From positions 2,368,001-2,432,000 of the forward strand of contig OZ243913.1 of the NCBI GenBank assembly GCA_965213705.1: 64,000 bases of DNA. The letters run 5' to 3'. The number at the start of each line of letters is the position of its first letter. Positions within the stretch are counted from its first letter, which is position 1. The notes under the pieces are model-generated. The model saw only the letters and a list, made by a program, of their open reading frames with translations, did not search any database and was not told the origin of the DNA. Both the position numbers and the translations under genes were made by a program. This stretch comes from Trueperaceae bacterium (GTDB taxonomy: Bacteria > Deinococcota > Deinococci > Deinococcales > Trueperaceae). This document shows positions 4,420 to 19,840 of this stretch, one piece after another.

Positions 4420-4619
4420 TGCCCATTTATAAATTTCGCACCTTCGAAGAAGCGCGAGAAGCCCTGTGGAGCGATGTGCTGGACGAGGCGTACCTGAAGC
4501 GCGTGGCCGACCTTTGGGAAAAGTCGGCAAAGCTGCATCCCAAGCGCTTTCGGCCGGGCGTCTACAAGTACCGGTCGATTGAAGAAATGAACCAGGCTCG
4601 AGACCACTTGCTCGACTGA
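4416..4619 (+). CDS. Small hypothetical protein with an internal repeat
   Basis: Coupled to the upstream stop; IYKFRTFEEA / VYKYRSIEEM repeat. Confidence 0.6.
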   Translation: MMPIYKFRTFEEAREALWSDVLDEAYLKRVADLWEKSAKLHPKRFRPGVYKYRSIEEMNQARDHLLD

Positions 4620-4628
4620 CACTCCAAC

Positions 4629-5477
4629 CTAACGCCGCACCGCGTACGGCCCCGTTTCGTCATTCCCCAAATGCAGCACCCGCATGTCCTCCATGAGTTT
4701 TTTTAAGAGCGCCAGCAAGCTGTACTCGGTGAACTTGGCAAGCTCCCCGCTCACGCCGGGATAGACTGCTTCGCGCAGTTCGGAGAGCGTGAGGGGACCG
4801 GATTGAAGCGCCGTGTAAACTTGCTCGAGCCGCTCCAAGCGGTGTTGCCGCACCTCGTTCAGTTTGGTGTAGGGGTCGTCAATCATCTCGCCGTGGCCCG
4901 GCCCGAGGGCGGTGAGCTTCAGGCCGCGCAAGGTGTCGATGGTAGCGAGATAGTCCGCCACGTCCCCCTCGGGCACGCCGACCCAGGTCGAGCCCTTGCC
5001 CGCCAACACGTCGCCGACGAGGGCGAGCTTGTCGGCCTCAAGGTAGTAACTCAGGTGGCCGGGGCTGTGGCCGGGGGTAAAAATCGTGCGGACGGTTTTG
5101 TTGCCGACGACGAGCGTTCGGTCGGGGTTGAGAGCCTGGAGGTTTTGGAGGTCGGGCGTCTCGAGCCTTGGCAGTTCGTTCGGGTGGACGTACACCGCAA
5201 CGCCGGGCCAGCGCTCCTGCACCAAGCCCAAACCCGCGACGTGGTCGCCGTGGCTGTGGGTGAGAAGGACGGCCTTGAGAAAGGTGACCCGTGCGGCTCC
5301 GAGTGCCGCGGCGACCTCTGCCAAACTCGCCGGTTCGTGAAAACCGGGGTCGACGAGCACGCCCACGCCGCCGTCCGCGACGAGGTAGCTGTTCGTCGTC
5401 GTAAAGGGCGGCAGGGTCTGGCTGGGCAGCTCGAGCCGCCACACGCCGGGGGCAACGTGTTCGTGGAGTGAAGTCAC
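4629..5477 (-). CDS. MBL-fold metallo-hydrolase with a C-terminal winged helix
   Basis: THSHGDH, TPGHSPGH, GD and PGHG motifs. Start placed at GTG 5477 because the longer ORF-track extension runs through a repeat. Confidence 0.85.
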   Translation of the reverse strand: MTSLHEHVAPGVWRLELPSQTLPPFTTTNSYLVADGGVGVLVDPGFHEPASLAEVAAALGAARVTFLKAVLLTHSHGDHVAGLGLVQERWPGVAVYVHPNELPRLETPDLQNLQALNPDRTLVVGNKTVRTIFTPGHSPGHLSYYLEADKLALVGDVLAGKGSTWVGVPEGDVADYLATIDTLRGLKLTALGPGHGEMIDDPYTKLNEVRQHRLERLEQVYTALQSGPLTLSELREAVYPGVSGELAKFTEYSLLALLKKLMEDMRVLHLGNDETGPYAVRR

Positions 5478-5566
5478 GTTAGGTAAAGACGAAAAAAGTA
5501 CCGAGTGAAAAGGGGCAAGCTTTTTCTCCTCTTCCACACAAAAAACGAGTGCTCAGACACGAGCAA

Positions 5567-6493
5567 CTATCTTCTCAGGTACTCAACGGCTGCGTCCAGC
5601 GCGTCCGCGCCCGGAGTTGCAACGTCCGGCACCACGCCGCGGCCTTCCCAGGTAGGGCCGCCGATGGGGGCCAGGACGCCTGCGGCAATCCAGGCTTGCG
5701 AACCGTCGCGGAGGCAAAAGGGCAGCACCGCCTCGACGTTGCCCGCGCTCGTTTCGCCGATGACGACCGCCCGGCCCCGGTCTTGCAAAGCGCCGGCCAG
5801 GCCCTCAGCCGCGCTGTTGACGTTGCCGTCGATAAGCACAACGAGCGGCAGTTCGGTCTCGACGGCGCCGATGGCGGGGTAGGGCAGCGGCAGCGCCCAG
5901 TTGGTCACGGTGCGCCACAAAAAGCCGTTTGTGAACACGCCTGCGGTTTGCATCATCTCGACCAAGCGGCCGCCCGGGTTCCCGCGCAGGTCGAGAACAA
6001 AGCCCTGCGCGCCCTGTTGCACCAGGTCTCTAACGGCTTGCCGCACGTTGCCAGCGACATTGTTAGAGGCCAAGTCGGGCAGCCGGATGTAGCCGACCGA
6101 ACCGTCCAACAAGTCGTATTCGACGTTGCCCAAACGCTCAGAGGTTCGGGTTTGCGCGAAAACGCCCAGGCAGGGCAAGTCGCCGTATTCTTCACGAATT
6201 CTCGCAACCTTTTGGGGCGGTACAAAAACCGAGTGGCTGTCGCCGATGCGCTCGTACATTCGCTCGAGCACCCCGTAAAACGCCGCGTCGTCCGCGGCGG
6301 CGAGGGCTTCGGGCTCGAACTCGGTGCGAACCTCGTCCCAGTCCAGACCCAAGTCGGCCAGGTCCCAGTACCTTTCCGCCACGAGCCGCCAAGCCGTGTC
6401 GAAGCGGTTTGAGTAGTCTTGGGCGTACGCCGAGCCGAGAACCGACAGGGCGGCGAGCACGGACAAAAAAACGAGCACTGGAAAACGCTTCAT
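5567..6493 (-). CDS. S41 family (C-terminal processing-type) peptidase, exported
   Basis: Signal peptide, GYIRL, LDLRGNPGG, SAAE and GETSAG. Confidence 0.9.
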   Translation of the reverse strand: MKRFPVLVFLSVLAALSVLGSAYAQDYSNRFDTAWRLVAERYWDLADLGLDWDEVRTEFEPEALAAADDAAFYGVLERMYERIGDSHSVFVPPQKVARIREEYGDLPCLGVFAQTRTSERLGNVEYDLLDGSVGYIRLPDLASNNVAGNVRQAVRDLVQQGAQGFVLDLRGNPGGRLVEMMQTAGVFTNGFLWRTVTNWALPLPYPAIGAVETELPLVVLIDGNVNSAAEGLAGALQDRGRAVVIGETSAGNVEAVLPFCLRDGSQAWIAAGVLAPIGGPTWEGRGVVPDVATPGADALDAAVEYLRR

Positions 6494-6590
6494 AGACTTT
6501 CAGTGTAGCCTGTGCGTTCCGGGCCGGGGGCGCGGGGCCTTACGCGGATGTTTATAGCCCTCATAAAAGCAGCCGTAACTACCAACTGTG

Positions 6591-7538
6591 CTAGGTCGTC
6601 TCGAGCGGTAACAGGTCGCGGGCGTAGCGCTCGAGCAGTTCCTCGCTGATGGGGGGGCCTTGCGCGCCGATTTCGGTGACGTTGAGCGCGCCCGCCACGT
6701 TGCCGAGCCGGGCGGCGTCGCGTAAGTCGTAGCCCTGCATGATGCCGTGAGCGAAAGCCGCGGTGTAGTAGTCGCCCGCGCCCGCCGAATTGACCACGTC
6801 GTCGACCTCCAAGCCCTCGACAAGCTCGGTCAGCTCGGGCGTGATGACGATGGAACCCCGTTCCCCCACCTTGACGATGACGCGTTCGATACCGTGCCCG
6901 GCAAGCCCGGCGACCGCGTTGGAGATGGAGCTTTCGCCGGTCAGGGTGAACAGCTCTTTTTGGTTCATGAGCAGGTAGTCCACACTTTGAACCAAGGTGA
7001 TGAGCCGGTCTTTGAGCGCGTGAACCGCCCCGCTGCCCATGTCGATAAAGGTGGTAAGTCCGGCCTGCTTGGCGATGTCGAGCGCCTTGACCGCGTACTC
7101 GCGCTGCAACCCGCCGATGAGGCTGTACGCGCTCATGATGAGGGCGTCGCACTCGGTAATGGCTTTGGGGTCGAGTTCGGCCGCGTCCAAGTTGCGGCTC
7201 GCGCCGGGTGAACTGATCATGGTCCGCTGCGCGTCCGGAGTGATAAAGATGATGACGCTGCCCGTCGGCAAAGACTTGTCGCGCTGCAAGGTGCTGGTGT
7301 CGACACCGGCCGCCTTAACGTTTTGCAGTGCCAGCTCGGAGAACGGCCCACCGCCGATGCAGGTGGCGATTTTGACCTCGTGGCCGAGCTGGGCCAAGAC
7401 CGTGGCGATGGTGCCCCCCGCCCCGCCGGGCTCGGTAACGGCGCGGGTTACGGTGACTTCGCCACCCGCTTCTGGCAACTCGGTCACAAAATACATCAGG
7501 TCGGCGGTCATGTCGCCGACAACAAAGAACTTAGACAT
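6591..7538 (-). CDS. PfkB/ribokinase family carbohydrate kinase
   Basis: PGGAG N-terminal signature, NQKE, and NSAGAGD C-terminal signature. Confidence 0.9.
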   Translation of the reverse strand: MSKFFVVGDMTADLMYFVTELPEAGGEVTVTRAVTEPGGAGGTIATVLAQLGHEVKIATCIGGGPFSELALQNVKAAGVDTSTLQRDKSLPTGSVIIFITPDAQRTMISSPGASRNLDAAELDPKAITECDALIMSAYSLIGGLQREYAVKALDIAKQAGLTTFIDMGSGAVHALKDRLITLVQSVDYLLMNQKELFTLTGESSISNAVAGLAGHGIERVIVKVGERGSIVITPELTELVEGLEVDDVVNSAGAGDYYTAAFAHGIMQGYDLRDAARLGNVAGALNVTEIGAQGPPISEELLERYARDLLPLETT

Positions 7539-7724
7539 CCGCCCCCTTTCAAACTGCTCCCGTGTGTTGTTTCAGGTTAACTTTACACTACCTTGGGTGA
7601 GTAAGTGTAGCGGTGTAGCCCTTTATGCTCGAGCTTGTTTGGTGAGCACAGTTTAGAAACGTCCACGAAGGAAGTCCAGGGACAAAAGACCTGGGAAACC
7701 TTCGCGCCCGCGCCGTGCGCGAAC

Positions 7725-8252
7725 TCAGTTGCCCGGCTCGATGAGGCCGTAGTCGCCGTCGTTGCGCAGGTAGATCACGCTCGTAAGGTTGGTCTCCAAG
7801 TTGTGAAACATAAAGAACGTGTGTCCCAGGGCCTCCATTTGTACGGCGGCGTCTTCGGGGGTCATGGGCCGCAAGACGTGCCGCTTGGTGCGTGCAAGGC
7901 GCGGTTCGGCGTCTTCTGCGGCGTCCTCGAGCGGCGGGGGAAGGTCGTTTGTGCGGCGAGCCAGCAGCTTGCCCTTGAAACGTTTGAGTTGCCGCTCCAA
8001 CTTGTCAACGACTTTGTCTACGGCGGCATAGGTGTCCTGACCGCTTTCTTCAGCCCGAACGATGCCGTGGGGCACGTTGAGTTGCACTTCGACCCGGGCC
8101 GGGTCGCTCGAGCCGCTGTCGTAAGACATCACCACTTTGGCGTCCACGATTTGGTCGGAGAACCGCTCCAACTTCTCGAGCTTGTCCTCGGCGTAGTTGC
8201 GCATGGCGTCGGTGACGTCTATGTTACGACCGGTAAGTTTATAAATGTTCAT
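7725..8252 (-). CDS. hpf: Ribosome hypernation-type factor: ribosome hibernation promoting factor (long HPF)
   Basis: GRNIDVTDAMRNYAEDKL, DTYAAVD, PMTPEDAAVQMEALGH and YLRNDGDYGLIE. Confidence 0.92.
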   Translation of the reverse strand: MNIYKLTGRNIDVTDAMRNYAEDKLEKLERFSDQIVDAKVVMSYDSGSSDPARVEVQLNVPHGIVRAEESGQDTYAAVDKVVDKLERQLKRFKGKLLARRTNDLPPPLEDAAEDAEPRLARTKRHVLRPMTPEDAAVQMEALGHTFFMFHNLETNLTSVIYLRNDGDYGLIEPGN

Positions 8253-8598
8253 CGTTTCCCCTTCGGTTGCTGAGTACAGACTTGCTTCGGGTGCAGCCAG
8301 TGTACCACCGCGCCGAGGTTAGGCAGAGCTGACGCAAAGTAGGTCAGGCAAAGAGCCGCGGAGGAGCCGGTAAAGAAGGTAACAGGAAACAAACTTCTCA
8401 ACCCCCTCGAGTCGGACCTCCGCAGTTGTTCCACCTTGTTCATGAAGGCTACCGACCCACAAACCAGCCGACGAACCTTGCAACCAGCCATCAACCGAGG
8501 CCAGACGGTTTACCTCATGAGGACGCTGGCCTGAGTACCGTGGGTTCACTATCGCCAAGCTCCGTGCTTGTTAACCGCGTCTGCTTTAGACTGCAAGT

Positions 8599-9372
8599 AT
8601 GACCAACCTTGCCGTCCTGAAACGTTTGGAGCAAAGCCTTCGCGACGTTGGCGCACAGTCACGCGAAATTGTCAAAACGGACGGCTTCATGGTGTTCCTC
8701 GACCTCGCCTCGAGCGCCTACCTACTCAGTTACGCCGTCCCCTCGGCAAGAGAACCCGCAGACTGGTCGCAAGCAATCGCCGCCATGCGTGAAGCGTTCG
8801 AGAGTAGAGGACGACGACCCCGCCTCGAGTATTTCCACGAACTGCATCCGGGGCTGGCCTGGGCGCTCGAGGAAGCGGGCTTCGCGCAGGACATGAGCGT
8901 TCCGGTGATGACCCTTGCGCCGGAAGATTTGGCAAAGCCGACCTCTGCCGAAGGAAGCTACGTTCGCTTGACGGCCGACGACGCGGACAGGCTCGAGCCC
9001 TTCTTGCGTGGTCAAAACCTCGCTTACGGCGGCGACGGTGGCGAGGACGCGCTTGTGTGGTTACCCAACCTGCTCGAGGGTTTGAAAGCGGGCCGGAGTT
9101 GGGTGGCGGGGCTCGAGCAAGCGGATGAGTTCGTCTCGGGGGCCATAATTCAAGGTGCTGAGGTCGGTGAACTGGCGGGCGTGTGGACGTTGCCGGACGA
9201 GCAAAAACAAGGTCTGGCGTTTCGCGTTTGCCAGCGTTTACTCTCTGACTATTTTGCGGAGGGCCACGAATGCTGGCTCTCGGCGGCGGAAGGGGCGCTC
9301 TCGCTGTACGAACATCTCGGCTTCGAGCGTGTGGGGACGCAGCTCAACTACGGGTGGCCCGAAGGTGTCTGA
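8599..9372 (+). CDS. GNAT family N-acetyltransferase
   Basis: VWTLPDEQKQGLA and LYEHLGF motifs; TAGACT 6 nt before the ATG. Confidence 0.8.
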   Translation: MTNLAVLKRLEQSLRDVGAQSREIVKTDGFMVFLDLASSAYLLSYAVPSAREPADWSQAIAAMREAFESRGRRPRLEYFHELHPGLAWALEEAGFAQDMSVPVMTLAPEDLAKPTSAEGSYVRLTADDADRLEPFLRGQNLAYGGDGGEDALVWLPNLLEGLKAGRSWVAGLEQADEFVSGAIIQGAEVGELAGVWTLPDEQKQGLAFRVCQRLLSDYFAEGHECWLSAAEGALSLYEHLGFERVGTQLNYGWPEGV

Positions 9373-9379
9373 CCGAGAG

Positions 9380-10603
9380 TTATGACCTGTCGACCTCGAG
9401 CACCCCCATCACCCACCGCTGTTTTGCCTCCGGCCAGGTCTCGAAAAGCTCGACGAACCTCTCTTTGTCAACTTTATAAAGCTCCACCACATCGCGCGGC
9501 TCGAGCCTCAACAGCAACTGCTGGACGACTTCGCGCTGGTGCCCGGCGACGGTTTCATGCGGGCGCAGCAGCAACTTTGTGAGGTCGGGGGAAAGTTGTT
9601 CGGGCCGTACCCGGTCGCCCCGCTCCAACTTGGTGACGAGGTATTCAAGCTCGAGCAGCGTCTCGGGCACTTCGGACTGCAGCTCGAGCAAGCGCCCCTT
9701 GCGCTGCGGCGGCGTGAGGGCGGCGAAGTCGGTGTCGGGGTCGTGCTCGAAAAACAGGTCGGCGAGCAAAAATTCGCGCTTTTGGCGCAGCGCGTCCGGG
9801 TGGGCGCGGTACCAGGCTAAGTCAATTTCGACGAGGTTTTCGGCCTGCAGGTGCTCGAGCAGTTCGGGGTCGCGCAAAAAAACGGCGTGCCGTTTGCTCG
9901 TCAAAGCCTCGAACTCGGCTTCGTTTTCCAAAACGAGGTAGGCGTTGCCGCCACGAGAACGCAGCACAAATACGCCTCCGAAAGCCGGGGTATAGAAGTT
10001 GGCCGTTTCTTCGAAAACAACGTCGGGGATGCCCAGACGCCGCGCGCGCAGGTCGCCGTGGGTGCGAGCGCTGTCCATAATTCGCTGCCGCAGCGCTGGG
10101 TCGAACCAGGCCAGCCGCTCGTCCCTGAACCGCTCCACGAGTTCGTTTTGCTCGGCAGCGACCGCGCCGAGCCCGCCCGCGTTGGAGCGCACCGTCACCG
10201 ACTCGACCCGGAGGAGGTTTTGCGGGTTGGCGTAGGTGCTGAACCCCTGGTCGAACTCCAATTGCAGCGCGGTCTCGCGGGTCAGGTCGGCGATTTCAGC
10301 CCCAAAGCGCGCGTAGTAGCTCGCCATAAGGGGGCGCTCGAACGACATGACCGGCGCGTACAAGGCGCTGCCACGTTGGTCGACGGTGAGGATGACGGCG
10401 AACGAGTTTGCCAGACCCTGCGTCAGGTAGTAACGTTTCCCCTTTTCCGCCGCGATTTCAGGACTCCAGCCTGAGCCGTCGATTTGAAAATTGGTGAGGG
10501 TCGTCGGCGCTAGCCCGAGTTCGGTCAGCGCGTCGTTGTAGCGCTTCACGAGCGCCGGACTGGTGATGCGGACGAGGTCGGGGTAGTGGGTTTCGGGCGT
10601 CAT
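9380..10603 (-). CDS. DUF6638-like protein of unknown function
   Basis: SPALVKRYNDAL...FQIDGSGWSPEI and NFYTPAFGGVFV resemble DUF6638 members as I recall them; GAGG precedes ATG 10603. Confidence 0.7.
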   Translation of the reverse strand: MTPETHYPDLVRITSPALVKRYNDALTELGLAPTTLTNFQIDGSGWSPEIAAEKGKRYYLTQGLANSFAVILTVDQRGSALYAPVMSFERPLMASYYARFGAEIADLTRETALQLEFDQGFSTYANPQNLLRVESVTVRSNAGGLGAVAAEQNELVERFRDERLAWFDPALRQRIMDSARTHGDLRARRLGIPDVVFEETANFYTPAFGGVFVLRSRGGNAYLVLENEAEFEALTSKRHAVFLRDPELLEHLQAENLVEIDLAWYRAHPDALRQKREFLLADLFFEHDPDTDFAALTPPQRKGRLLELQSEVPETLLELEYLVTKLERGDRVRPEQLSPDLTKLLLRPHETVAGHQREVVQQLLLRLEPRDVVELYKVDKERFVELFETWPEAKQRWVMGVLEVDRS

Positions 10604-10741
10604 CGGTGGCCTCGAGAGCAAAGGGGTAATGAGTGAAGAAAGTACCGAGTACCGAGTAAAAAGTAAAAAGTGAGGTCAAAAAGGAGCGTGGTAGCATCCG
10701 CCCAAGCTTTTACCTCCCCGCTCCTTTTCTCCTCAACCTGC

Positions 10742-12694
10742 TTACTTCTCATCTCTCGCCGCCACCCGCCGCGCTACCTCTTCGCGCAGCCGCACGTCCT
10801 TGACCATCTCGTCCAGGCGGCGTTCGCGCGTCACGTTCTGGATGCGGACCAAGTTGTCGAGGTACTGTACCGACTCTTGCAGCCGGATGTCCGCAAAGGA
10901 CAAGCCCTTCATGTTGGCGTGCATGAGTTCGATGAGCTTACCCTTTTTGGTTTCATAATCGGTCGCGAAAAAGAGGCTGTGGTCGTCGAACCACTCGTCG
11001 GGCAAGCCGAAATCCATCACGCGGTTGTTGACGGCTTGCTGGATGTTGCGCACGTCTCGAGAGGTGAAAAAGGGAAAAGCGGCTTGCGTTTGCCGGTAGA
11101 GTTCGGCAAAAAAGGCGTGCTGGCTGGGTTGGTAGTCACGGCGGACACGCTCGAGAACCTTACCAATTACGGCCTCTTCGGGCTCGGCGTCCCCGTCGTG
11201 CGCTTCGGACAGACTGCTCAGCCCGGCCTGGTCGGTGAGGTAGGTGTACTCCGGGTCTTGCATCTCGATGAACTTAGGGTCTATTTCCGCGTAGCGCCGC
11301 CACCACAAGTAATCCTGGTCCAAAAAGTCTTCCCGCGTTTCGGCCCCGTCCACCGGAAAGCGGGCGACGACGCGCGACAGGACGGCCTTGTCGAGCTGGT
11401 CGGGGAGGTTGGTAAAGATGTCGATGGCGGCGTTGCCGCGCTGCACCGCGTAAGCGCCCTCGGTGTAGCGCAAAAACACGCCGATGACCTCGCGCACGCC
11501 CGCCGAGACGCCCTGGCGCGTGCGGTCTTCAAGGTTGTTCTCCGCGTCGTCGATGGGCGCGTAGATGATTTTGCCGGGGTCTTGCAGGGGCCGCATCCAC
11601 GCCACCATCCGCTCGGCGCTGCCGCCCTGGAAGGTCGAGACGACCGTGTCCGGCAGCGGCCAGAACAAAAAGGGGATGCCCAACGCCTGGCAATGGTCGT
11701 GCAACATCGTCGCGGTGGCGGCGATTTGCAAACTCTTCCCGGTGCCCGGTTTGCCGTAGCCGAGGCGCAAACTCGGGAAACCGCCGAGGTCTAAAAACGG
11801 GTTGCGCTGCGCCGCTAGGTCGTAACACAGCAGCCGCTCGACCAGTCGCCGCGCCCCGTGCTTGGCCGCGCGGTTGCCGACAATTTGGTTCAGTTCGACC
11901 CGGTTGAACTCGACGCTCGAGGTCGGCCCGCCCAGGTCTATTTCAAAGCCTTGCAGGTGAAAGTCGCCGTGCTCGAGCTTGTACGCCCGCGTTGTGAACG
12001 GCTCCGCAAACGCGAACGACGCCTCGCGCAGCTTGACCTCGTCCAGCACCGCGCGGAAGTAGAGTTGCGTCATCTTGACAAAGTCCAGGTCGGTTTGGAC
12101 GGCGCTCGAGTCCAGGTACATCCCGTAGTAAAACAGGTTGCACTGCAAGGCGCGCACCGGGTTTTGCAGCGACAGCTCGGGCACGCCCTGAAAGTCGAAT
12201 TGAAGGTTGCCTAGTTCTTCCACTTTGTAATCAGCCAGCTCGAAAGAAACGTAGTAGGCGCACACGAACACCGTAATCGCCGAGGCCGTCACGTACTTGC
12301 CGCGAAACTTGGTCTTTTGGGCTTCGCTCAGGCCGCCGCGGGCGTTTTGTTCGGTGAGTTGCTCCAAACCCGAAGCTTCGGTATAAAGTTTCGAAACGTA
12401 CATCCCGAGCTTGAGGCCTTCGCGCACGACGTGGAGCGTGTGGTTCACGTCGTCGTCGAGCAGCGCCTCGTCGCGGCTCGTTTGCCGGGCGATTTTGAGG
12501 AGCGAAACGGTTTCGGTCTGCGTGGTTGCTAAAGAAGATTCACGGTAACCCGGTGTGGCGCTCGGCGCAGGACGCTCGTTCAGCACGCCCGCTTTGGGTT
12601 GCCACTCGACTCGAGCCAGAAACGCGTTAGCGCGGGCGGTGAACTCGTTGAGTTCGTCTTGCTTGATGGGTAACCAAGAAACGCTGCTATCCAT
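10742..12694 (-). CDS. AAA+ ATPase with a large unknown N-terminal domain
   Basis: Walker A GKPGTGKS, Walker B APIDDAE, and sensor-1/SRH-like FTNLPDQLDKAVLSR. Confidence 0.85.
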   Translation of the reverse strand: MDSSVSWLPIKQDELNEFTARANAFLARVEWQPKAGVLNERPAPSATPGYRESSLATTQTETVSLLKIARQTSRDEALLDDDVNHTLHVVREGLKLGMYVSKLYTEASGLEQLTEQNARGGLSEAQKTKFRGKYVTASAITVFVCAYYVSFELADYKVEELGNLQFDFQGVPELSLQNPVRALQCNLFYYGMYLDSSAVQTDLDFVKMTQLYFRAVLDEVKLREASFAFAEPFTTRAYKLEHGDFHLQGFEIDLGGPTSSVEFNRVELNQIVGNRAAKHGARRLVERLLCYDLAAQRNPFLDLGGFPSLRLGYGKPGTGKSLQIAATATMLHDHCQALGIPFLFWPLPDTVVSTFQGGSAERMVAWMRPLQDPGKIIYAPIDDAENNLEDRTRQGVSAGVREVIGVFLRYTEGAYAVQRGNAAIDIFTNLPDQLDKAVLSRVVARFPVDGAETREDFLDQDYLWWRRYAEIDPKFIEMQDPEYTYLTDQAGLSSLSEAHDGDAEPEEAVIGKVLERVRRDYQPSQHAFFAELYRQTQAAFPFFTSRDVRNIQQAVNNRVMDFGLPDEWFDDHSLFFATDYETKKGKLIELMHANMKGLSFADIRLQESVQYLDNLVRIQNVTRERRLDEMVKDVRLREEVARRVAARDEK

Positions 12695-13835
12695 GTACGT
12701 TTCCGTTCGCGTCGTAGCTCAGCACTCGAGCGCCTTCGAACTCCGGCACCCGCGCGGTCAACTCGTCCAAGTGCTGCGCCAGCGCGTGCGGCAGCAGCAC
12801 ACTCCTGTGAATCACCGAGGCGCGGCGCGCGTAGCTCTCGGGGTCGGACTCGGGGATGTGGAACAGCTCGCGCACCCGGCCGCCCGGCGCGAAGAGGCTG
12901 TTCGTCACGCTTTGGCGCCTCGAGAAGACAATCTCGTCGGTGATGAACAGGACTAAGTCGTCCTCGTCACCGTAAGCTTCCAGCAACTCCAAAATCGCCC
13001 CCTGGCTTTCATCCAACACCGCGCCCTCTTGTTCCAACAGCAGCGGCGTGTACAGCGGCCCGATGCCGATGCGTTTCAAGATTTTGGGGTGGATGGGCTC
13101 GAGGGCGTCGTCAATCGCCATCGCCAGGATGCCCACGTCGGGCACGCGGCCGCCCTCGGCCCGGATAACTTCCAACAGTTGCGCGTGGTTGACTTTGCGG
13201 TGCTCGAGCGGGTCGGCCTCGTTGTTCTGTTCAAACGTCATGACGTGGACGTAGGGCCGGTTCGTCTTGAAGTCGTAGCAGGCCCACGAAGCGAGGTAGG
13301 TACGCATGTCTTTCCGCGTCGGCTCCTGTTTGATGATGTTGTCGGGCTCGAGCATGAAGGGCATGAACAGCTTGCTTTCATCCAACATCTCGAGGTAGCC
13401 GCGCTCGGCGAGTTGCCACAAAAAGTCGACGGGTTCTTGTTGGTACTTGAACAGGTAGTCGAGCGTGAGGCTTTTAAGCATACTCTCGGCGGGCAGGTCG
13501 CGCAGGCGTTCCTCGCGGTGAAGCAGGTCGACGCCGAGTGCGCTGACTTCCTGCGCGTTCGGAAAGCCGGAGTCGGTCAGGTCGACCCATAACAGCCGCG
13601 CGTGCGCGGGGCTGTGGGTGTATTTCAGCCGCAGCGTTTCGACGGTGTAGAGCAGGCGGCCTAGCGACGCGCCGACCACCGCGGCCTCGTAACTGTTTTC
13701 GCTGTCGTCCACGCGGTAGCTCTGCGCCAGCAGGTCGAACACCCGCCGCAGCAACCAAAAGTAACGCGTGTAGTCGTCGCTTTGGAGCAGCGTGAAGTCC
13801 GGGTTGTCGTGGATGAGGGAGGGTTGGTCGGTCAT
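12687..13835 (-). CDS. Hypothetical protein (382 aa) coupled to the AAA ATPase
   Basis: Long ORF with typical codon usage; 8-nt overlap with the ATPase start. Confidence 0.8.
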   Translation of the reverse strand: MTDQPSLIHDNPDFTLLQSDDYTRYFWLLRRVFDLLAQSYRVDDSENSYEAAVVGASLGRLLYTVETLRLKYTHSPAHARLLWVDLTDSGFPNAQEVSALGVDLLHREERLRDLPAESMLKSLTLDYLFKYQQEPVDFLWQLAERGYLEMLDESKLFMPFMLEPDNIIKQEPTRKDMRTYLASWACYDFKTNRPYVHVMTFEQNNEADPLEHRKVNHAQLLEVIRAEGGRVPDVGILAMAIDDALEPIHPKILKRIGIGPLYTPLLLEQEGAVLDESQGAILELLEAYGDEDDLVLFITDEIVFSRRQSVTNSLFAPGGRVRELFHIPESDPESYARRASVIHRSVLLPHALAQHLDELTARVPEFEGARVLSYDANGNVHG

Positions 13836-13874
13836 GGTCTGTGGCGGTTCAAGGTGAGACCTCGCTATAAAACA

Positions 13875-14285
13875 TTATGGCGTAAACCGCAAACCTTTTT
13901 GAAGGTTTTTGACGCTCCTCTTCCACTGAGGAAATTGTTCTTCGTTTTCACTCCAAAGCTCAAACAATTCGGAATCCTCTTGCAAAACACGTTTTAGCCC
14001 CCTTTGTGCAAGCTTAACTAGGCTGCTGTCGGCACTGATTTGATTTGCCCGCAGCCAGCTTTCTGCTTTTTCGGGTAGTTGCACGTCAAAGTCAGGGTTC
14101 AAACTGGCGACGATTGCGGCAGCGGCCACTGCTTCTTGACCGAAATCAACCTCGAGATATTCCTCTTCGGTAAGGACAATCTCAAACGTGTTTCTCAAAG
14201 GCGTAGCGTCGCTGTACTCTTGCAAAGTTCCGAGATAGTCGAGGGCTCCGTCATTATCGAAGTAAGTCGCGTCCCAAGCTCCCAT
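13875..14285 (-). CDS. DUF4259-like protein
   Basis: MGAWDATYFDNDGALDYL N-terminus and SELFELWSE C-terminus; lower GC than neighbours; GGAG upstream of ATG 14285. Confidence 0.8.
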   Translation of the reverse strand: MGAWDATYFDNDGALDYLGTLQEYSDATPLRNTFEIVLTEEEYLEVDFGQEAVAAAAIVASLNPDFDVQLPEKAESWLRANQISADSSLVKLAQRGLKRVLQEDSELFELWSENEEQFPQWKRSVKNLQKGLRFTP

Positions 14286-14314
14286 ACTAAAGCTCCGATG
14301 CTCTACGCATAGAC

Positions 14315-15640
14315 TTAAAACGTCTCGCCCGCCTCCGCGCCTGCCTCGTCGCCGGGGTAGCTGAAAAACGAGCTTTTCGTCGGGTCGATGCCGTACTGGG
14401 ACTTGAACTGCTCGATGAGCTTGAGTTCGCGTTCGCGGATGCGGCTGATGGCCTCGGCCTGGGCGGCTCGAGCGTTGGCGATGTCGGCTATTCGCTGCGG
14501 GTGTTTTTCCATCCGGCGCATCCGGATTTCGTCCGAGACAGCTCCGGCCCGCGCCATGTACTCGACGTTGCGCTGGTCGGCCTCGGCCCCGAGGTCGTCG
14601 AGTTGCTTGGCGATGTCCTGGTCGGCCATCGCTTTCATCGCTTCGAGGCGTGAGCGAAAGGTCACCACCCGCTCTTCGGTGTCGCTGCGCAGCGCGGTAA
14701 TCCACATGCGCTGGTTGTCGCGCAGTTTCATCTGGGTGCGCTCGTGGACTTCGAGTTCCGAGGCGAACTTTTCCTTGCTCTGGAACAGCACGAAGGCGGT
14801 GTTGCGCCGCCCGCGCAACTCTTCGACCGCGGTGCGCAGTTGCGAGATTTTCTCGGTCTGTTGAGCGTGCTCGCTGGTGCCGTTGACGAGTGACTCGAGG
14901 GCGTCCTCCTCGGCGCGCAGTTTCGCCTCGGCGTCGTTGAGGCTCTGGTCGAGCTTTTCTAAGGCGCGGGCCGCTTCCTCTTTGACCTTGAACGCGGACG
15001 CTTTTTTAGCGCTGACGTTGCGGAGTTGCTTGTCGATTTCCTCTTTGCGGCGTTCCATAATCGCAATCGTCTTCTCGACGCGGAGCATAAACTCTTGCAG
15101 GGACGCTTCCATGTCGGCGCTCATGAGTCGCTGTCTGGCCTGGCGCTTCGTTTCGGACTTGGCCTCTTGCAGCCGCGCCTCGGCGGTTTGGAGGTCTTCT
15201 TCGGCGTCGGCAATGGCGCGCTCTTTGAAGAAGCGGCGTTTTTGCGCGGACTCCATCTTCTCTTGCGCCTCTTTGAGTTGGCTTTCAGCCTCGTCGAGGA
15301 TGGCCTGCTCCTCGCGCGAGGGCTGGTTTAAGTTGAGGTATTCCGAGCCCATGCTCTCGAGCACCGCGTTCAGCCCGAAGACCGCTTGGCCCAGGTCTTT
15401 TTCCTCCTGGGTCGCGTCCTTGCGGAGTTCTTCCAGGTCGGCGGTGAGGACTTTCATCCGCAAGTCGCGCTCGCGCGTGTCGCGCACCTTGGCGGCCTCG
15501 TCCATCTGCTGCTCCAGTTCGCTGAAGCGCGCCGAGAAGTCGGTCTGGTCGCGGTTGCGCGTTTCTAATTTGCTCACGGCGGTTTGCGTTTCGCCGGTGA
15601 GTTGGCTTAGAAGCTGGTCTGAACCTAGCGATTGCGTCAT
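14315..15640 (-). CDS. Long coiled-coil protein of unknown function
   Basis: E/Q/K/R/A/L-rich and helical throughout; AGGAGG precedes ATG 15640. Confidence 0.85.
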   Translation of the reverse strand: MTQSLGSDQLLSQLTGETQTAVSKLETRNRDQTDFSARFSELEQQMDEAAKVRDTRERDLRMKVLTADLEELRKDATQEEKDLGQAVFGLNAVLESMGSEYLNLNQPSREEQAILDEAESQLKEAQEKMESAQKRRFFKERAIADAEEDLQTAEARLQEAKSETKRQARQRLMSADMEASLQEFMLRVEKTIAIMERRKEEIDKQLRNVSAKKASAFKVKEEAARALEKLDQSLNDAEAKLRAEEDALESLVNGTSEHAQQTEKISQLRTAVEELRGRRNTAFVLFQSKEKFASELEVHERTQMKLRDNQRMWITALRSDTEERVVTFRSRLEAMKAMADQDIAKQLDDLGAEADQRNVEYMARAGAVSDEIRMRRMEKHPQRIADIANARAAQAEAISRIRERELKLIEQFKSQYGIDPTKSSFFSYPGDEAGAEAGETF

Positions 15641-15859
15641 ACAAAACCTCCTACGTTGCTGCACTCTGCTTCGTTCCACCTTGTATTGGCACATTCCTGG
15701 CTGTCACGTTGCCGTCACCTTTTACGCTGCCACAGTGTACGCCTTTGGGGGGGCGAACGCCTCAAACTTTAGCAGGAAGGCGAGAGCGTCAGACTAACCC
15801 CTTTGCACCCCGACCGCCCATTCCTGAAATTTCGATGAGAAATAGCCTACAATGCGGGT

Positions 15860-18250
15860 ATGCGTCTTGTAACTCTTGGGGGGTTACAGCTAGACGGGGT
15901 CTCTTTCAACCGGGTCAAACCACTTCTTCTTCTCACCTACCTCGCACTTGAAGGTCCGCAGGAACGGCGGTACTTGGCCGAACTGTTTTGGCCCTTGGCG
16001 AGCAACCCCCTGAACAGCTTGTCGGTCGCCCTGATGCGGCTCAGGAAAGTGCTGCCGGGCAGCTTGGAGGCCGACGATACTCGAGCCTGGACAGGTATTG
16101 CGACCGATGTGGGTGAGTTGAACGCCAAGTTGAACGAGGGCGATTTCGAGGCGACGCGCCGCCTTTACGGCGGGCCGTTTGTGCACGGTGTGACGAACGA
16201 CTGGGGCGTCGAACTTGAAGAGTGGGTTTACGCCAAGCGTGAAGACTGCGCCGCGCGGGTGCAGCGCGCACTTCTCAAACTTGCTGAAAGCGAAGCGGCC
16301 CAGGGCCGTTTCGAAGCGGCGGCGCAGCGGGCCGAGGCGGGCTTTACCCTCGACTTCGCCCCCGAGCCGGAACCTGAAGACTTAGGCCGCCTGTACACGC
16401 TGTTGCAAGCGGGCGAAAGTCCGCTGGCGAGCAGGGTCAAAGAAGAAGCTGAAAGTTTCGACATCGCGCTGGGGTTGAGCGCGGCGGAGGCCAGAGCCCG
16501 CTTGCAGCGCGCCCTGCTGGGCCGCACGGAAGAGCAAGAATTACTGCGCTCTTTGGCCCCCGGCGAGTGGGCCTGGGTGCAGGGCCGCGCCGGGATGGGC
16601 AAGACGACGCTGCTGAAAAGCTTAAGCCCCCAGTTTTTGCCGGGCCGGAGCGGTCTGCCCTTCGCCACCGTCGCGCCGCTCGTCGGGCGGGCGCTGCAAG
16701 AAGGTGAAGGTGGCGTCCTGTACAAGCTGCGTGAAATACAGGGCACCCTGGCGATAGACAACTGGGAACTTGTGGACGCCGAGAGCCGGCGCGTGTTGCA
16801 AAAACTTTATGAGGTGGGCAGCGCGGCGCGCGTCGTCGTTTCGTCGCGGCAGAATCCGCCTTTCAAGCTTGACACGCGCGTCGAACTCGGTCCCTTGAGC
16901 CGGGAAGACTTGAGCACCGTGCCGGGCGCTTGGGAAAAAACCCAGGGCCTGCCCGCCTTTGTCGACGCTTTTTTGCGCGAGGACTCGCTGTCGCTGGTGC
17001 TCGAGGACAAACTCGAAGCCCTGTCGCCGCTGGCTTGTCAAGTCTACTTCGCCCTCACCCTCCTCGACGTACCCGACCCGGCCGCGGTGCGGCGGGCACT
17101 CCGCTTAAGCGCTACCGAGGCGGCCGAGGCCCTGGAAGACCTGCTGCGGCGCGGCTTCATCGAGCCGTCGGGCCAGGTGCGCGTGCGGCAGGCGGCGCAG
17201 GAGTACCTGAGCACGCGCCCCACGCTGCACGGCCCGCTCGCCTTGCAACTCGCTCGCGTGCTCGAGCCCGAGCGCGCCTTTCCGCTCTATCAGGCCGCCC
17301 GTCACCTGTGGCGCGACGAGGACGAACCCAGAGCCGTTGAAGCCTACCTTGCCTGGGCCGGAGAACTGCTCGAGCGCGGTTTTCCGCAGCGCGCGGTCGA
17401 GGTGTTGGACGACGCGCCCGTCGAGCGCCCGGTTACCTTTTTGAAAAGCCGCGCTTTAGAGCGGGCCGGGCGCTATCAAGAAGCTTTCGCCGCCGCCGTC
17501 CCGCTTGCCGAAACGCCGGGTGTACTCGCGCTGCGGGCCACGCTCCACTGGCGGTTGGGTAGGCCGGAGGAAGCGAGAGTGGCCGCCGAAGCCGCCCTGA
17601 AAGGGGAGATGTTCCCAAGGGCCGAAGGCTTAAACGTTCTGGGCCATTTAGACCTGTCCGCCGGGAAGCCTGAGACTGCTATGCAATTTTTTCGACGGGC
17701 GTCGGCGCTGTGGCTCGCGCTTGGCGAGACGACCCGCTGGGCTGGGTCGCTCAACAATTTAGCGCTTGCGCGAGTAGAGGTTGGTGAGAACGTCGAGACA
17801 GCTTTTGAAGAAGCTTTGGCGGCGGCGAGCCGTAATCTAAGGACTCAAGCCCTCGTAAAAATCAATTTAGGGCGCGAGTATGGTCGCCAGCACAGTTGGG
17901 AAAAAGCCGGCAGCGTTTTTGAAGAAGCCATTGCCTTGGCAGAGGAAACAGGTGAAGTTCGCCTTGCTAGCAATGCTTGGAACAATTTAGGTGTTTGTCT
18001 CGAGCAACATCAGCCCGAACAGGCGCGGCAAGCCTACAGGAAAGCTTTAGATTTGGCGCAGCGAGCTGGTGACCAGTTTATGGTGGCTGGCTCGCTGTCC
18101 AACCTAGCCGAACTCGAGGGCGACGCCGAAGCCTGGGAGGAGGCCATGCGGCTGTTCGAGGCGACGGGCAACCACGCCATCGTCGAGCAAAAACGCGCCC
18201 GTATCCCGCTCGACCACCCGGTCAGGCGGCGGTCAGGGCAAACTCATTAG
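15860..18250 (+). CDS. SARP/BTAD-like regulator with P-loop NTPase and TPR domains
   Basis: N-terminal KPLLLLTYLALEG...LAELFWP, Walker A GRAGMGKT, and C-terminal TPRs (LNNLA, WNNLG, LSNLA). Confidence 0.8.
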   Translation: MRLVTLGGLQLDGVSFNRVKPLLLLTYLALEGPQERRYLAELFWPLASNPLNSLSVALMRLRKVLPGSLEADDTRAWTGIATDVGELNAKLNEGDFEATRRLYGGPFVHGVTNDWGVELEEWVYAKREDCAARVQRALLKLAESEAAQGRFEAAAQRAEAGFTLDFAPEPEPEDLGRLYTLLQAGESPLASRVKEEAESFDIALGLSAAEARARLQRALLGRTEEQELLRSLAPGEWAWVQGRAGMGKTTLLKSLSPQFLPGRSGLPFATVAPLVGRALQEGEGGVLYKLREIQGTLAIDNWELVDAESRRVLQKLYEVGSAARVVVSSRQNPPFKLDTRVELGPLSREDLSTVPGAWEKTQGLPAFVDAFLREDSLSLVLEDKLEALSPLACQVYFALTLLDVPDPAAVRRALRLSATEAAEALEDLLRRGFIEPSGQVRVRQAAQEYLSTRPTLHGPLALQLARVLEPERAFPLYQAARHLWRDEDEPRAVEAYLAWAGELLERGFPQRAVEVLDDAPVERPVTFLKSRALERAGRYQEAFAAAVPLAETPGVLALRATLHWRLGRPEEARVAAEAALKGEMFPRAEGLNVLGHLDLSAGKPETAMQFFRRASALWLALGETTRWAGSLNNLALARVEVGENVETAFEEALAAASRNLRTQALVKINLGREYGRQHSWEKAGSVFEEAIALAEETGEVRLASNAWNNLGVCLEQHQPEQARQAYRKALDLAQRAGDQFMVAGSLSNLAELEGDAEAWEEAMRLFEATGNHAIVEQKRARIPLDHPVRRRSGQTH

Positions 18251-18286
18251 CTTGGGGGCGAAACGTCGGTTTAACCGGAGGTGGGT

Positions 18287-19840
18287 ATGAAAACAGGCTT
18301 GTTGATTGGGGTCGTTCTAGTCTTGGTAGTCGGGTGTACGCCAAGGGCCGAAGTTCCTACAGAAGAGGTTACGTTTGCGGTCGAGGAGGCTGCGCAGGGA
18401 GAATACGTCGCGGCGCGCTTAGGCGGTTTCAGCCTCGAGCTTTCTGCCAAGGTGAGTGTTTCGGTCGGCGGCGTGCCCGCCAGGGTCGTGTCGTTCAACG
18501 AGCGCGTCGTTGTGTTCGAAGTGCCACTGAAAGCCCGTGAGACGGCTGAACTCGTCCCGGTCGTCGTGTCGGACGGCCGCGTCACGGCTGAGGGACGCTT
18601 AAAAATCCTCGGTGAGGTCGTTCCCGGAAGAGTTATTTTGCTCGTGTTGCCGGATGTCGATTTGACCGCTGGGCTAAGCCAAGCCTTGCAAAACTTTTTC
18701 GAGCGCGAAGACGGCCTGTTCCGTGGCCTGCAAACCGTGACGGGCGAACCTGTGGGGCCAGGGATTGAAGAACGGCGCACGCTCCTTAATCCGCTGAGTG
18801 ACACGGGTTTTGAGGGCAGTATCGAAGAAAATATGAGCTTGTTAAGGGAAACCGGCTCGCCTTGCTTGGGTGACTTGGTGATTTTAGACCTCAACGGTGT
18901 TCCCCTCGAGGAAATCCTGCAAGAACTTGCCGAAGTAAACTTACCCGGTGACGGTGATATGTACGGAGCTGGCGACCAGAGCGGAGAAGAAGCTCTAAAA
19001 ACCATCGGTATCGACCCCACCGCCCGGCTTTTTACAGGCTTGGGCGTTACCATCGCCGTTTTGGACTCGGGGCTAGACCGAGAACTGTTCGGCAGGCCCT
19101 GGCTCGAGACTTTGGCCTACAACTTCGTCAGCGACAGCAGAACGAACCTTGACGTCTACGCCCTGCACGGCACCGCCGCCGCCCTGGCCGCCGCCGGTGT
19201 CGGGGTCGGCGTGGCCCCGGCCGCCGACCTCCTCCCCCTGAAAGTTTGTGACGGCGACGACGTGCGCTGCCGGGCGGACCATGTGGCCCTGGGCATTTGC
19301 CACGCGCTTGTCCACGCGCCGCGCGGCCCCGAAAACCTTGTCATGAACCTCAGCTTCGGCAGCCCGCTCGACGTCACCGTGCATGAACTGCTCTTGGAGC
19401 ACGCCGTGACCAGGCTCGGCGTCGGCGTCGCGGCGTCGGCGGGCAACGAGGCTGGTTTGGGCTCGCCCCCACACTATCCGGCGGCTTACACATTTGTTAC
19501 CGAGACCCCCCGAGAAACAGGTGACGGCCTTATCGCGGTGGCGGCCCTGGACGCTAACTTGCAACCGTGGGCGGGCGGGACAAAGGGCGGCTACATCGAC
19601 GTGACCGCGCCCGGTGTCAACCTGCTCGACGGCGGCCTCGGGACTTCTTTTTCTGCGCCCTACGCGGCGGGCGCGGTGGCGCTGTTCAAAGAAGCCTCCG
19701 GCGGCCGACTGTCGCCCGGTGAGATTGAAGTGTGTCTCGAGCAGGGTGCCGACGCCAGCGCCGGGTTCGCCGCGGACGAGGTCGGCAGCGGCGTGTTGAA
19801 CGTGGCCGACGCTTTGAAAATCTGTGGGCTCGTCCCCTAG
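18287..19840 (+). CDS. S8 (subtilisin-like) serine protease lipoprotein with an IPT/TIG-like N-terminal domain
   Basis: Lipobox VVGC; catalytic VLDSG, HGT and GTSFSAP; oxyanion SAGN; GGAGG RBS. Confidence 0.85.
   Translation: MKTGLLIGVVLVLVVGCTPRAEVPTEEVTFAVEEAAQGEYVAARLGGFSLELSAKVSVSVGGVPARVVSFNERVVVFEVPLKARETAELVPVVVSDGRVTAEGRLKILGEVVPGRVILLVLPDVDLTAGLSQALQNFFEREDGLFRGLQTVTGEPVGPGIEERRTLLNPLSDTGFEGSIEENMSLLRETGSPCLGDLVILDLNGVPLEEILQELAEVNLPGDGDMYGAGDQSGEEALKTIGIDPTARLFTGLGVTIAVLDSGLDRELFGRPWLETLAYNFVSDSRTNLDVYALHGTAAALAAAGVGVGVAPAADLLPLKVCDGDDVRCRADHVALGICHALVHAPRGPENLVMNLSFGSPLDVTVHELLLEHAVTRLGVGVAASAGNEAGLGSPPHYPAAYTFVTETPRETGDGLIAVAALDANLQPWAGGTKGGYIDVTAPGVNLLDGGLGTSFSAPYAAGAVALFKEASGGRLSPGEIEVCLEQGADASAGFAADEVGSGVLNVADALKICGLVP

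Follow-up and report, generated by a model that had tools for sequence, protein, structure and literature searches.

Our study identified, in the genome of a Trueperaceae bacterium, a real and undescribed core of four genes that encodes a coiled-coil protein (CC), an orphan protein of 382 residues (U382), a AAA ATPase, and a DUF6638 protein. Judging from the covariation between its residues, CC would in all likelihood polymerize into an open filament or ring of staggered subunits, each step being about 31 residues, or about 46 Å. The best reading of the whole, drawn by analogy, is that of a module that would be ESCRT-III/Vps4-like by design and not a shown member of those systems. The window referred to below is the whole stretch of DNA analyzed, 64,000 nucleotides in length, and all the coordinates are positions in it.

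Gene content of the locus

The five minus-strand open reading frames proposed in the initial annotation are all present. The CC gene (14315..15640, 441 aa) encodes an all-helical protein outside any Pfam family, for which two antiparallel hairpins and a role as the subunit of a staggered polymer are predicted; an upstream ATG at 15694 would extend it to 459 aa. It is followed on the same strand by a DUF4259 gene (13875..14285, 136 aa; Pfam, 1e-32), the U382 gene (12687..13835), whose product has neither a family nor a solved relative, the ATPase gene (10742..12694, 650 aa; PF00004, 6e-7), and the gene of the DUF6638 protein (9380..10603, 407 aa; Pfam, 1.9e-48), which is a core member. The U382 gene overlaps the ATPase start by 8 nt. 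The genes had been described as closely spaced, a term that fits the ATPase and DUF6638 genes only loosely, with 138 nt from stop to ATG. The AT-rich spacer at 10622-10741 carries a short CTCGGTACTCGGTACT repeat, a motif also present in the CC-U382 spacer of a locus from the same genus (L001), and it may be a small intergenic repeat that is mobile in this genus.

The Pfam search returned nothing over the cut-off for CC or U382, and NCBIfam and PADLOC gave generic coiled-coil or weak matches only. None of the five proteins contains a 19-residue window with a mean hydropathy of at least 1.6 (the maximum was 1.55), that is, no membrane span was found in them, and a promoter and terminator scan of the locus gave results near chance. 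The host genome consists of one contig, is 98% complete, and holds a single copy of the ATPase; among its named relatives, the nearest is a genome of Trueperaceae with 95% identity. In a search of genome contigs, L001 was the sole match. Upstream of the cassette, a divergent NTPase-TPR protein of 796 aa, the N-terminus of which is regulator-like (15860-18250, plus strand), is followed by a subtilase (18281-19840, plus strand), and this pair is also found upstream in L001, not in the other carriers.

The place of the DUF4259 gene in the module, as originally proposed, had to be abandoned. Its GC content is 0.48 and its GC3 is 0.50, against 0.61-0.63 and 0.80-0.85, respectively, in the other four genes; the family is present in one of the five carrier genomes and is missing from the four others, and in L001 this position is taken by about 200 nt of spacer unrelated to it. 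The module consists of four genes, and DUF4259 is a low-GC passenger outside it.

Conservation of the four-gene core

The co-occurrence and order of the genes, across loci and 364 Deinococcota genomes, bear out the earlier view of a conserved multi-gene machine. Our tally comprises 86 loci, namely the best 80 of at least 169 confirmed metagenome matches plus six others, and many of them are close kin. The order CC-U382-AAA-DUF6638 is kept in 55 of the 56 loci that have all four genes, and among the loci with sufficient flank, U382 is present in 61/66, CC in 48/51, and DUF6638 in 53/55. Within Deinococcota, it is the same five of 364 genomes that have U382, the ATPase (by a stricter search), and DUF6638 over its cut-off, the CC search in this phylum having covered the carrier genomes only. 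In one genome (G021), about 126 kb separate the DUF6638 gene from the rest of the module. The gap between the ATPase and DUF6638 genes exceeds 300 nt in 27 of 68 loci, and the cassette is often interrupted by passenger genes in the loci L036-L092 (a Nudix-like family in 25 loci, among others).

Of the 8000 candidates scored, 1799 were relatives of the ATPase, and their sources are named as Trueperaceae, Bdellovibrionota, Verrucomicrobiota, and Patescibacteria, among others; for CC we gathered 217 relatives, and its Atlas clusters are commonest in Bacteroidota. A short form of CC was found in rhizobia and Rhodobacterales, on megaplasmids of Vibrio, and in a single provirus record. A fixed neighborhood around the cassette recurs in many loci, and both rhizobial records have the cassette between tdk and fhs. 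In the Vibrio megaplasmids of about 0.9 Mb (L003 and L004), the four-gene cassette adjoins mfd, and DUF2333 is found elsewhere on the plasmid. The provirus record, of 359 kb (L093, from G061), has a short-form cassette at 4550-12034, immediately preceded by DUF2333 and with an SmpB gene in the vicinity, and it may be a megaplasmid-like record or a host fragment. Two other records filed as plasmids (CP090106.1 and NZ_CP069303.1) are chromosome-like, with sizes of 3.7 and 4.6 Mb. One full cassette was found among viral contigs, and annotated phages gave no match for the ATPase or the short CC.

A search of openly accessible full texts found no paper naming DUF6638 and, among the matches listed, none on the four-gene cassette. 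A comparison of 28 profile pairs gave no indication of paralogy among the module proteins (the best reached 7%), and the search for solved relatives of CC, U382, and DUF6638 returned coiled-coil noise or nothing. An Atlas lead for U382, with a best score of 0.80, was unusable and was discarded.

Fold, hairpin tip, and covariation of the coiled-coil protein

The AlphaFold2 model of the CC monomer (pLDDT 74.9, pTM 0.59) has helices at residues 109-134, 139-174, 178-248, and 256-359; its confidence drops to about 70 around residue 340 and to less than 50 over 353-397. The covariation analysis, which was computed before this model was available, yields the same two antiparallel hairpins, so that the hairpin fold of CC is predicted in both ways. 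In the first hairpin, the helices flanking the tip covary in an antiparallel manner. The second, between helices 178-248 and 256-359, is a common arrangement and is supported by 12 covarying pairs with position sums of 505-514, accompanied by satellites about 30 to either side, at 535-539 (three pairs) and 475-479 (two pairs).

The tip of the first hairpin (residues 135-142, RRFFKERA, with a family consensus of W-F-F-R/K; 15215..15238, minus strand) sits at the turn 135-138 in the AlphaFold2 model; all 112 sequences have F or W in the tip, the median net charge of which is +2, and it is likely membrane-inserting. The long and the short CC are homologous (99.9%); the long one adds about 45 residues around the hydrophobic tip, and the tip is kept in the short proteobacterial form. 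From this conserved aromatic-basic sequence, we consider it reasonably likely that CC binds membrane via the tip.

That the coiled coil would form polymers was already proposed in the initial annotation, and the proposal is now backed by covariation and the monomer model. Helix 256-359 (104 residues; 14564..14875, minus strand) bears i/i+31 couplings, which we read as subunit-to-subunit contacts: 16 of its 24 strong covariation pairs join residues 26-35 apart (for example, 266/297, 288/320, 299/330, and 324/355) against an expected share of 0.16, and in a separately built alignment (A1) the count was 18 of 29, although the significance of such counts is overstated because neither the coupled pairs nor the related genomes are independent. 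All 60 subsamples had their best offset at 29-33, the band persisted in four random halves, and a column shuffle brought it down to 2/23. None of the four pairs in helix 178-248 falls in the band, and the band stays at or near the expected share in the control families (U382, the ATPase, and DUF6638), the three counts being 2/46, 20/410, and 7/146. Two weaker signals agree with the stagger, namely the satellites of the second hairpin and a double-step band at 58-67 that is weak (9/48 over residues 258-410 and 2/24 inside the helix alone, which is not significant); the short-form alignment, with an effective 14 sequences, is uninformative for the band.

The coupled pairs are complementary (E-R/D-K/K-E, R-D, K-E) rather than identical residues, which argues against an internal repeat in CC. 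Given that 31 helix residues span about 46 Å, and that one straight helix cannot make contacts between residues 26-35 apart, CC is most likely an open staggered polymer; furthermore, since a parallel offset contact cannot close a two-fold dimer, an open filament or a large ring would be the simplest reading. A fold switch within the CC monomer may, alternatively, be the source of the band.

The AAA ATPase

The assignment of the 650-aa protein to the AAA+ ATPases was right, and we can now place it in the classic AAA clade as a single-module protein, nearest to Cdc48, Vps4, and TRIP13. Its nearest solved relatives are Cdc48 (7e-9), the proteasome ATPases, Vps4B (8e-7), and TRIP13 (1e-6); these matches cover about 130-155 residues of the ATPase core and start at residue 297 or later, and no solved match was found for the orphan N-domain of about 255 aa or for the roughly 75-aa insertion that precedes the lid. 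As claimed, the protein contains GKPGTGKS, IDDAE, and TNLPDQLDKAVLSR, with the Walker A GKPGTGKS at 11732..11755 and the Walker B D382-D383-A-E385 at 11540..11551, both on the minus strand. Among 99 aligned relatives, K320 of the Walker A, F/Y355 (pore loop 1), D382, D383, R391, N429 (sensor), R441, and R546 are invariant, with E385 present in 98; the classic AAA features, that is, the aromatic pore loop 1, sensor 1, and the SRH arginine (R441), are thus found in 99/99. In this respect the ATPase resembles Cdc48/p97, Vps4, and TRIP13/Pch2, from which it differs in having an Asp in place of the catalytic Glu: the hhhhDE Walker B of Vps4/CdvC is replaced by DD in 99/99 sequences. The MIT domain of Vps4/CdvC has no Pfam match in the protein.

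The DD Walker B presumably resembles that of NSF D2, and we think that the ATPase probably hydrolyzes ATP despite it. In the classic AAA clade, the threading of protein substrates by an aromatic pore loop is established; the presence of this loop therefore argues for the threading of a protein substrate by the ATPase. The chance that this substrate would be CC is, in our judgment, slightly better than even.

Membrane partner genes and the forms of the module

Two membrane genes follow the cassette in 40/47 and 35/42 loci, and the long form usually has both. In the short form, DUF2333 is present in all five records and adjoins the cassette in three; its protein is likely membrane-anchored. Among the five Trueperaceae carriers, the two-membrane-gene set and DUF2333 were each found in 0/5, in searches that do detect DUF2333 in the short-form records and with membrane-gene profiles that recover their genes in other loci and not in the host genome. 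Because neither set was found in the Trueperaceae form, the CC tip may be its only membrane anchor. The description of the machine as self-contained is consequently true of these Trueperaceae genomes only, whereas most relatives carry membrane genes.

In the ATPase tree, which took in 41 of 59 labelled rows and was built by quick runs, the Trueperaceae-type group forms one clade (support 100) within the long-CC type, and its nesting among the six-gene loci received 89 in one run and was without resolution in the second, so that the tree gives no clear sign that the membrane genes were lost. SMc02733 of S. meliloti, a ChvI-bound fragment in PMC3687685, was tentatively equated with the ATPase gene from its numbering; this identification was rejected, the sole 166-bp GATC fragment in L002 falling in DUF2333, perhaps by chance.

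Comparison with ESCRT-III, PspA, Vipp1, and Vps4

Vipp1 rungs are staggered hairpin polymers in which subunit j contacts j+1 and j+3 (PMC8281802), and the design of CC and its ATPase would resemble that of ESCRT-III with Vps4. Like ESCRT-III, PspA, and Vipp1, CC is a long helical hairpin that is predicted, from covariation only, to form a staggered polymer, and its aromatic/basic tip motif is a putative membrane-binding element. CC differs from PspA in being about twice as long, and from ESCRT-III and PspA in that its membrane element would be an internal hairpin tip and theirs is an N-terminal helix. The ATPase, for its part, shares with Vps4 the single-module classic AAA architecture, the aromatic pore loop, and a Vps4-like SRH spacing, but differs in its orphan N-domain, in the DD Walker B, and in being accompanied by two soluble proteins of unknown type.

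Homology of CC to PspA or ESCRT-III is not detectable. In profile comparisons with a set of 23 Deinococcota PspA sequences, hhalign gave 6-14% and 4 of 20 block shuffles scored higher, and there was no Pfam match to PspA_IM30 or Snf7, so that PspA homology was rejected. The superposition of CC on PspA 4whe (Z 10.8, rmsd 2.3, 121 aligned) is tied with those on unrelated hairpins, and the fold search of CC returned no match at E <= 0.001. The host genome has its own PspA, located elsewhere. In the passages compared, the PspA-with-AAA gene sets in PMC11237479 differ from the four-gene cassette, and the gene sets in PMC11188069 are other than it.

Proposed mechanism and alternative explanations

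Our best explanation of the whole, to which we give somewhat less than an even chance, is that CC subunits would stack into an open filament or ring, each shifted by about 31 residues along its neighbor, and that this polymer would grip the inner face of the membrane through its aromatic-basic hairpin tips. The AAA ATPase would then pull the polymer apart and recycle its subunits, with U382 and DUF6638 as probable adaptors, and the module might help to repair or reshape the membrane when the envelope is stressed. More tentatively, the module could be a bacterial equivalent of ESCRT-III/Vps4 that arose independently. Its filament, built of staggered hairpins at intervals of about 46 Å, would be a new one that shapes or cuts membranes and is taken apart by an ATPase dedicated to it, and the module would have been kept across a range running from Patescibacteria to Bacteroidota, the rhizobia, and Trueperaceae, with its membrane anchors swapped or dropped. 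If this is true, a widespread and undescribed polymer-plus-AAA module would represent a second solution, present also in the minimal genomes of Patescibacteria. The Trueperaceae form, without membrane genes, would be the smallest version for reconstitution, and the CC covariation supplies specific residue pairs for testing.

It is important to consider that the same proteins could work in other ways. CC might be a static scaffold filament, with the ATPase acting on another substrate (for example, in the extraction of a membrane partner) or as a slow, NSF-D2-like oligomerization ring. We regard this as unlikely, even though it would fit the DD Walker B in 99/99 sequences, the separation of the CC and U382 genes from the ATPase gene in three loci (L057, L060, and L077), and a further locus (L061) that retains CC, the ATPase, and both membrane genes without U382 and DUF6638 nearby; the invariant pore-loop aromatic and Arg finger speak against it, as does the retention of the ATPase alongside CC in the five Trueperaceae genomes, where no membrane genes were found. 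The initial annotation also suggested an anti-phage system. In such a system, the ATPase would trigger CC assembly on the membrane and so kill or stall the infected cell; the association with defense genes proved weak, and we consider this role improbable. With PADLOC 2.0, there was no match for U382, the ATPase, or DUF6638, and CC matched JetC (4e-6) and LmuB over the coiled coil only. Of 144 neighbor proteins (from 187 family representatives, 150 were randomly drawn and 6 cut at contig ends were dropped), 9 matched PADLOC at 1e-10, a raw count in which we read 6 as housekeeping look-alikes; in our reading, the defense-like matches are limited to the Cas6 and Cas8b of L001 and a single PDC-S02 match. 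The recurring fixed neighborhood, including the tdk/fhs site, and the strongly conserved ATPase core likewise weigh against defense, whereas the patchy distribution (5/364 in the phylum), the passenger genes often inside the cassette, its carriage by Vibrio megaplasmids and one provirus record, and the CRISPR-Cas genes about 1-2 kb from the cassette in L001 would favor it. These last are Type I-B genes downstream of the cassette (L001, 11425-17956) and are absent there in the window.

Finally, CC might be a distant TelA/KlaA or ClyA-type protein that would confer stress tolerance by forming a ring or pore. TelA/KlaA proteins (PF05816) are of similar length and all-helical, with a hydrophobic loop between helices as in CC; one Atlas cluster has 10% TelA members (score 0.85), Pfam HBL appears below the cut-off (E 0.0024), and the Foldseek results include weak ones for AhlC, MakA, and a viral tellurite-resistance protein (the latter with TM 0.30/0.34 and E 0.059). 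We nevertheless hold this origin to be very improbable, since no fold match reaches E <= 0.001 and the profile comparison of CC with 14 diverse TelA sequences gave 0.2-1.4%, a level that controls with reversed or shuffled sequences also reach, so that TelA homology was rejected; CC has no Pfam match to the family, no XpaC-like partner was seen in the cassette, and a 31-residue stagger would be ill-suited to side-by-side pore subunits. A solved TelA structure was not found. TelA itself was not found in the host genome or in any of the four carriers tested (G000, G001, G017, and G021), a point in favor of the TelA reading; these belong to a set of 61 relatives, one of them an unpublished genome on which nothing above depends, in which four carriers are too small a number to establish exclusion and TelA exceeds the cut-off in 18.
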